Position numbers and translations under genes: made by a program. DNA of 64,000 nucleotides from Escherichia coli (lineage in GTDB: Bacteria > Pseudomonadota > Gammaproteobacteria > Enterobacterales > Enterobacteriaceae), in NCBI RefSeq assembly GCF_003018255.1, contig NZ_CP027440.1. One strand, written 5' to 3'. The notes beneath the pieces were generated by a model. It had not been told where the DNA came from, did no database searches, and saw only the letters and a program-made list of their open reading frames with translations. Below are positions 60,517 through 60,669 of this stretch, in pieces; positions within the stretch are counted from its first letter, which is position 1, and each line of letters starts with the position of its first letter.

Positions 60517-60534
60517 TCTGTCGCTGAACACATT

Positions 60535-60669
60535 TGTCGGATGCGGCGCGAGCGCCTTATCCGACCTACGGTTCGCTATCTCTGGCTGGCCTGATAAGAC
60601 GCGAACGCCGGCGCATCAGGCAACACTGCCAGTGTCGGATGCACCGCGAGCGACCGATCCGACTTACGG
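60535..60669. repeat. BIME: three REP units in alternating orientation between znuB and ruvB
   Basis: tgtcggatgcggcgcgagcgccttatccgacctacgg; gcctgataagacgcgaacgccggcgcatcaggc; gtcggatgcaccgcgagcgaccgatccgacttacgg (last unit overlaps ruvB stop). Confidence 0.75.

Follow-up and report, generated by a model that had tools for sequence, protein, structure and literature searches.

The nearest described relatives of the element analysed here are the REP clusters called BIMEs, for which two classes have been distinguished: BIME-1, made up of a Y and a Z1 unit joined by a long L linker, in many cases bearing an IHF site, is found in single copy; and BIME-2, made up of Y and Z2 units with short linkers, forms tandem repeats whose copy number differs between strains (Ton-Hoang et al., 2012). 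According to the same authors, TnpA_REP needs not only the GTAG tetranucleotide but also the stem mismatch for binding as well as for cleavage. Further literature reports that DNA gyrase strongly binds and cleaves BIME-2 arrays, and documents IS1397 and IS621 as insertion sequences specific for REPs. As to function, the preprint by Harris et al. (2026) presents REPs as stabilisers and partial Rho terminators, which between convergent genes act on the 3' UTRs in both directions, with convergent gene pairs that contain REPs being more expressed; it also describes the REP effects as context-dependent, and terminal REPs as giving, on average, no longer mRNA half-lives. REPs no more than 15 nt away from a stop codon are reported to stall the terminating ribosomes, trigger trans-translation, and lower the protein yield (Liang, Rudd and Deutscher, 2015).

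The locus that we compared with those systems lies near one end of a window of 64 kb of E. coli chromosome, by which term we mean the whole stretch of DNA analysed, and separates the convergent genes znuB, on the plus strand, and ruvB, on the minus strand. The stop codon of znuB (TAA) occupies positions 60514-60516, while the ruvB coding sequence extends over 60664-61674 on the minus strand—its stop codon at 60664-60666 reading 'tta' on the plus strand and its last codon, CCG (Pro), being at 60667-60669—so that a gap of 147 bp (60517-60663) is left between the two genes. A query of 601 nt around the locus was compared with 5,426 complete E. coli genomes, of which 5,425 were matched, the matched stretch bearing the annotations znuB and ruvB; the coding sequence at 60664-61674 is labelled ruvB in matching genomes. 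The closest matches came from strains Rb-50 and C4 (99.2-99.7% identity), whereas K-12 had an identity of about 94%.

Within this gap we found three REP-derived units in alternating orientation, Y(-) Z2(+) Y(-), hereafter U1, U2, and U3, all of them intergenic apart from an overlap of 4 nt with ruvB. An earlier note on this DNA, made from the sequence alone, had described the gap as filled by a BIME of three REP palindromes in alternating orientation: we confirmed the palindromes and their orientations—by profile for U1 and U2 and by homology for U3—and found the description as a three-unit BIME to be correct, which description we refine to a BIME-2-type Y-Z2-Y array. The gap is not filled by REPs from its start, as its first 18 nt (60517-60534) constitute a non-REP leader sequence. 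We regard the znuB-ruvB spacer, with a probability of roughly 0.85, as a BIME-2-type REP cluster of 1.5 Y/Z2 pairs located in the 3' region that znuCB and ruvAB, two convergent operons, have in common. The locus is real and tidy but ordinary, and all its features agree with published REP/BIME biology.

The layout of the array was also delivered by a repeat finder, which program returned a 37-nt direct repeat (60535-60571 versus 60633-60669; 84% identity, 98 nt apart), each copy with an internal palindrome, and which placed between the copies one further palindrome, opposite in polarity. For a formal alignment to the REP consensus we used an nhmmer profile that was seeded with six units, rebuilt after the harvest of 32 distinct copies, and then run against the whole 64-kb window; its sources were six other K-12 loci—the sequences flanking rayT, the REP325 array, and four 50-kb blocks chosen arbitrarily—which choice avoids circularity. 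Simpler searches were of less use: a loose regular expression for REP-like palindromes gave hundreds of chance matches across the window and was worthless without a palindromicity filter, so it was replaced by a skeleton match and then by the profile HMM; the skeleton match, in allowing substitutions only, missed U2, which has a 1-nt insertion in the loop, and U3, and a gapped profile alignment was therefore needed. By this alignment, U1 (36.0 bits, E 3.9e-10) and U2 (22.6 bits, E 6.1e-6; match at 60587-60622, model positions 3-37) agreed with the consensus, but U3 taken alone (7.6 bits, E 0.31; a half-unit match at 60633-60652) remained below a match.

The 178 kb of K-12 that were sampled for the profile contained the 32 distinct REP copies, and the spacer query matched 1-13 other places per genome by megablast, as corresponds to a dispersed, high-copy repeat. 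This dispersal bears on whether the palindromes might simply be Rho-independent terminators serving znuCB and ruvAB and belong to no repeat family, which reading the presence of GC-rich stem-loops at the ends of two convergent operons could suggest. In addition to the matches of the units to a dispersed family, however, none of the three stems is followed by a run of T, and a terminator scan detected no intrinsic terminator in the spacer, its sole terminator-like match being located inside znuB and at chance expectation; we accordingly hold that reading to be very improbable.

A search of the window against Rfam placed no family over the spacer and returned only four unrelated RNAs, and the RefSeq annotation table of K-12 lists no repeat feature at the position. 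The supplementary data of three papers contained no REP-related entry for ruvB or znuB, the sole match being a znuB row in an expression table; a literature search combining ruvB with REP found nothing relevant; and the text of the Harris et al. (2026) preprint and those of its supplements that were searched do not discuss znuB/ruvB as a REP case. As separate observations on the window, the Rfam matches above the gathering threshold were SraC/RyeA (+) overlapping SdsR/RyeB (-) in 39417-39561, around 39.4 kb; a cspA-type thermoregulator 5' UTR at 23468-23928 (-); and sroD at 4336-4421 (-).

U1, the znuB-proximal Y-type unit, occupies positions 60535-60569 on the minus strand, on which strand its GTAG is read (CTAC at 60566-60569 on the plus strand), and is identical to the Y unit of the K-12 rayT flank at 31 of 35 positions (4/35 differ). 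The predicted hairpin has an internal mismatch loop and a free energy of -19.2 and -18.8 kcal/mol on the two strands, with z-scores of -2.9 and -3.4 against shuffled sequences. The unit starts 19 nt past the znuB TAA and thus lies outside the range of up to 15 nt from a stop codon. In this strain the GTAG head has been kept by only one of the three units: U1 has GTAG, U2 GCTG, and U3 GTAA.

U2, a Z2-type REP of 38 nt on the plus strand (60585-60622), fits in the alignment the Z2 pattern GATAAGACGCG...CGCATCAGGCA, and its hairpin was calculated at -14.8/-16.3 kcal/mol (z -1.8). At its head, the tetranucleotide at 60585-60588 is GCTG in place of GTAG, which latter motif is retained on the Z2 units of the K-12 and O157 alleles. 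A head-to-head linker of 15 nt (ggttcgctatctctg, 60570-60584) without an IHF consensus joins U1 and U2, as compared with 17 nt in REP325; and a tail-to-tail linker of 10 nt (acactgccag, 60623-60632) joins U2 and U3, the corresponding length in REP325 being 11 nt.

These characteristics—the Y-Z2-Y order, the short linkers (15 and 10 nt), and the lack of an IHF site—place the cluster, as judged from its sequence, in BIME-2 and not in BIME-1. The earlier note had mentioned IHF binding as an activity of REPs, and the general statement in the literature that some BIMEs bind IHF is all that speaks for a BIME-1 of RIP/RIB type whose linker would bind that protein. The middle unit, though, is a Z2 of 38 nt with the pattern given above and not a Z1; the linkers are short and do not constitute a long L motif; a search for the IHF consensus WATCAANNNNTTR returned no match in or near the spacer; and the tandem amplification seen in other strains (see below) is foreign to BIME-1. 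Because it is the long L linker of BIME-1 in which IHF sites are located, an IHF role does not fit here, the mention of IHF is not applicable to this locus, and we assign to a BIME-1 identity a likelihood that borders on the negligible.

A perfect inverted repeat of 9 nt was observed between the last codons of znuB (60505-60513, CAGGCCAGC) and the head of U2 (60585-60593, GCTGGCCTG), which repeat occurs only in the alleles where the Z2 unit has changed from GTAG to GCTG, namely those of the window, Rb-50, and NCTC13148; this correspondence may be a coincidence. In the predicted fold of the plus-strand RNA, the pairing between znuB and the U2 head encloses U1 in a longer stem. The folds of the whole spacer, which are predictions only, gave alternative inter-unit pairings, such as that of U3 with U2 on the ruvB strand, instead of three separate hairpins.

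U3, a decayed Y-type REP on the minus strand (60633-60667; TTAC at 60664-60667), is the unit that adjoins ruvB. Its head, GTAA (60664-60667), consists of the last base of the Pro codon of ruvB plus the TAA stop, and its outer stem begins at 60663, at 0 nt after that stop. The earlier note had the third REP running into the final codons of ruvB: the stop codon is indeed overlapped, but the overlap amounts to 4 nt (the stop and one base) and not to several codons, the 'CGG' by which the U1/U3 repeat is prolonged (60667-60669) being a flanking similarity outside the REP consensus. U3 differs from the Y unit at 10 of 35 positions, and its hairpin (-10.9/-11.9 kcal/mol) retains only an outer stem of 7 bp, with z-scores of -0.15 to -0.26, like those of shuffled sequence.

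With a profile score that reaches only half a unit and a hairpin z-score near 0, U3 might be considered a 3' hairpin peculiar to ruvB, whose likeness to a REP would be fortuitous and not a sign of derivation from one. Against this origin, 31 of the 37 nt of the repeat are identical to U1 (83% over the unit, 6/35 differing) and in register at the 98-nt period of the array; the K-12 allele of U3 scores 17.7 bits (E 6e-6) with the REP profile; the E. albertii orthologue is an intact full-length Y REP of 37.3 bits, reading CC-GTAG-GTCGGATAAGG; and in the 5- and 7-unit alleles of E. coli the array continues at the same position, and the same ruvB-adjoining terminal unit closes a regular array. The identity to U1, the K-12 score, the intact E. 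albertii orthologue, and the continuity of the array lead us to regard U3 as the decayed descendant of an ancestral Y unit; a chance origin, already contradicted by the series of Escherichia orthologues, has very little likelihood. U3 therefore counts as a REP through its sequence homology only and not by its own profile score.

In E. albertii the ruvB stop codon is the TAG of the REP's GTAG. We examined the 3' ends of ruvB in one genome per species by means of a degenerate pattern for the RuvB C-terminus, by which procedure 44 loci were retrieved and 37 read. In all 37 Enterobacteriaceae loci, including those of Citrobacter, Salmonella, Klebsiella, and Kosakonia, RuvB ends at the same residue (...PPEMP), the stop being TAA, TAG, or TGA and followed by unrelated downstream sequence. 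A conserved protein end that is followed by unrelated sequence implies that the position of the ruvB stop predates the REP; as these sequences read, the REP did not remodel the RuvB protein. The location of the stop codon within the GTAG/GTAA head is neat, yet expected, as many REPs lie a few nucleotides from stop codons.

Comparison of the spacer across E. coli strains, which the earlier note had proposed as a check for variation in the number of REPs, did reveal such variation, with 3, 5, or 7 units. The three-unit spacers measure 146 bp in K-12 and 147 bp in the window; that of O157:H7 NE122, with five units, measures 245 bp; and those of NCTC13148, NCTC9082, and NH-21, with seven units, 340 bp. 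The array grows or shrinks by one Y+Z2 pair, with a period of 98 nt. Among 59 chromosomal matches taken as an evenly spaced sample, about 73% had three units, about 14% expanded arrays, and about 12% IS1397. In 4,006 of the 5,425 genomes (~74%) the spacer was recovered as a single uninterrupted match that spans 80% or more of the query, and in the sampled rows such matches were nearly all three-unit alleles, plus one allele with an IS621 remnant.

Where IS1397 is present, that element sits at the centre of the Z2 loop, in the order GATAAGACGA-ACA, IS, ACA-GCG..., with an apparent 3-bp target duplication of ACA; and since both of its orientations are represented among the strains, it must have inserted independently at least twice. 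In a lineage comprising strains MS20673, 2/0, and 5-1, an insert of some 60 nt (64 nt) is located at the CT of the CTAC of U1. The sequence of this insert is present in 2,233 of the 5,426 genomes, the median copy number being 5 and the maximum 27, and is located elsewhere beside IS621 transposase genes and inside other BIMEs. We entertained the idea that it was a novel REP-targeting MITE and rejected it, as full copies show the left end of IS621, which is known biology. The spacer is a recurrent target of REP-specific insertion sequences, and the arrival of IS1397 and IS621 at this locus constitutes an independent confirmation that its units are read as REPs by the machinery of the cell.

The three-unit Y-Z2-Y cluster was found in E. 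albertii, E. whittamii, and two cryptic Escherichia lineages as well as in E. coli and, to judge from this distribution of the sequence, is older than the splits between the Escherichia species. U1 is near-invariant across the lineages examined (32.7-37.4 bits, with a hairpin of about -18.8 kcal/mol in the copy folded) and stays intact while the neighbouring units and the linkers diverge. In the E. coli SCPM allele, a T-A pair of the U1 stem has become C-G, which change is apparently compensatory, though it could equally have come about by gene conversion from other REP copies. U3, for its part, has kept its integrity in E. albertii alone; its decay has followed different and apparently independent courses in the K-12 type, the SCPM/MOD1 type, E. 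whittamii, and clade E1V33, with calculated hairpins that go from -18.8 kcal/mol in E. albertii through -14.4 in K-12, -14.2 in O157, and -11.9 in the window to -8.1 in SCPM, -6.2 in E. whittamii, -5.8 in E1V33, and -2.7 in MOD1-EC7003.

This asymmetry between the conservation of U1 and that of U3, drawn from a small sample compared without a phylogeny, is suggestive only. The repeated decay of U3 beside the constancy of U1 might conceivably reflect selection against a strong hairpin after the ruvB stop, which selection would relieve a REP-induced stalling of ribosomes on a DNA-repair gene; on these sequence comparisons we consider that explanation doubtful. If it were true, the polymorphism in BIME copy number and IS insertions would constitute a natural tuning knob for the levels of RuvB and ZnuB between strains.

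With respect to a possible function, by analogy with the published systems the units would fold as stem-loops in the transcripts arriving from either side and impede 3'-to-5' exonucleases, U1 serving znuCB, and U3/U2 serving ruvAB. The REP stem-loops would likewise favour a partial, Rho-assisted termination that limits convergent read-through, so that, in a spacer devoid of an intrinsic terminator, the 3' ends of both convergent mRNAs would be set and stabilised by the REPs. By the same analogy U3, at 0 nt past the ruvB stop, would fall within the class reported to stall ribosomes and lower the yield via trans-translation; given that its hairpin is weakened in this strain, however, any such effect is probably small, and U3 may no longer do anything. 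At the level of the DNA, the cluster could represent a gyrase site, as reported for BIME-2 arrays; and only U1 would combine the GTAG with the stable imperfect hairpin required by the RAYT (TnpA_REP), U2 (GCTG) and U3 (GTAA) being, from their heads, probably inert to that enzyme. With U1 as the sole unit to qualify for TnpA_REP, this allele would probably be a poor substrate for further amplification.

The cluster could also be a genuine BIME and yet be functionally neutral: a fossil of RAYT-driven selfish DNA, lodged in a permissive convergent spacer, whose influence on the expression of znuCB and ruvAB would not be measurable. The loss of the GTAG from U2, the decay of U3, and the large length polymorphism and IS insertions tolerated in many strains would all be in keeping with neutrality, as would the REP effects, which are reported as variable and as including no average gain in half-life. 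A neutral relic would nevertheless not readily account for a U1 almost invariant across Escherichia species while its neighbours diverge, for the apparently compensatory stem change of the SCPM allele, or for a spacer that contains no other terminator-like structure. We view neutrality as a possibility to be kept seriously in mind, though not as a probable one. The natural alleles are themselves of use: the locus offers a convenient series that varies in the number of units (3, 5, or 7), in the presence of IS1397 and IS621, and in the state of the stop-adjacent hairpin, from intact to decayed, which series would suit tests of the published ideas on mRNA 3'-end protection, Rho-assisted convergent termination, and ribosome stalling at a stop-adjacent REP.

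For annotation, the spacer should read as a BIME-2-type REP cluster, and neither as a terminator nor as an sRNA or small open reading frame. Beyond this correct annotation the locus is of little importance; it reveals no new mechanism. Two mechanical open reading frames do run through the REP units (60534-60686, plus strand, 50 codons; 60566-60703, minus strand, 45 codons); these are Arg/Pro-rich translations of the palindromes and hence REP artefacts, not genes.

The remainder of the window contains other REPs. The single REP that the earlier note had placed after pykA was recovered by the profile as a Y-type unit at 55414-55448 on the minus strand (28.7 bits, E 7.7e-8); we observed that its stem begins at only 7 nt past the stop codon of pykA (TAA, 55405-55407), within the class, at 15 nt or less, for which an effect on translation termination is reported. 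The single REP indicated in the yebF-yebE spacer does correspond to a REP-like unit, a degenerate Y-like REP on the plus strand at 46289-46323 (12.1 bits, E 0.012, match at 46289-46320; 15.3 bits in the K-12 orthologue), but a second unit in head-to-head orientation had been missed, which unit is a strongly decayed Z2-like REP on the minus strand at 46238-46274, detected by a skeleton match with 4 mismatches and scoring 6.1 bits versus 23.1 in the K-12 orthologue. A near-perfect GC-rich palindrome at 3146-3171 (GCCGGACTGAGCGCGCCCAGTCCGGC) has a superficial likeness to a REP stem, yet the profile finds no match there; this palindrome is possibly a terminator hairpin.

Compared with the known systems, the znuB-ruvB cluster stands closest to the BIME-2 arrays, such as REP325 between yjdM and yjdN and the copies that flank rayT (yafM): both have alternating Y and Z2 units separated by short linkers—17/11 nt with a period of 100 nt in REP325, 15/10 nt with a period of 98 nt here—and both are located outside genes at their 3' ends, with a copy number that varies among strains. 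Unlike the typical arrays, the present one comprises only 1.5 pairs, the head of its Z2 is GCTG instead of GTAG, and its ruvB-side Y unit is decayed, with a head tetranucleotide that doubles as a stop codon. With the REPIN/RAYT systems, in which a REP-associated tyrosine transposase mobilises the REP pairs, the cluster shares inverted REP pairs that have a GTAG head and an imperfect hairpin, as TnpA_REP needs, but here only U1 keeps all the required features, and no rayT gene is present in the window. The likeness to BIME-1 or RIP (Y-L-Z1, with an IHF site) is confined to the inverted REP pair, from which class the locus departs by its Z2 in place of a Z1, by the shortness of its linkers, by the lack of an IHF consensus, and by being tandemly amplified in other strains. 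Among the REPs located up to 15 nt from a stop codon, for which nrdAB is an example, the U3 stem at 0 nt past the ruvB stop and the pykA REP at 7 nt would both find a place, although the U3 hairpin is weak here (-11.9 versus -18.8 kcal/mol for an intact unit). Finally, as in the convergent-gene REPs of Harris et al. (2026), a REP cluster lies here between two convergent genes whose spacer contains no intrinsic terminator.
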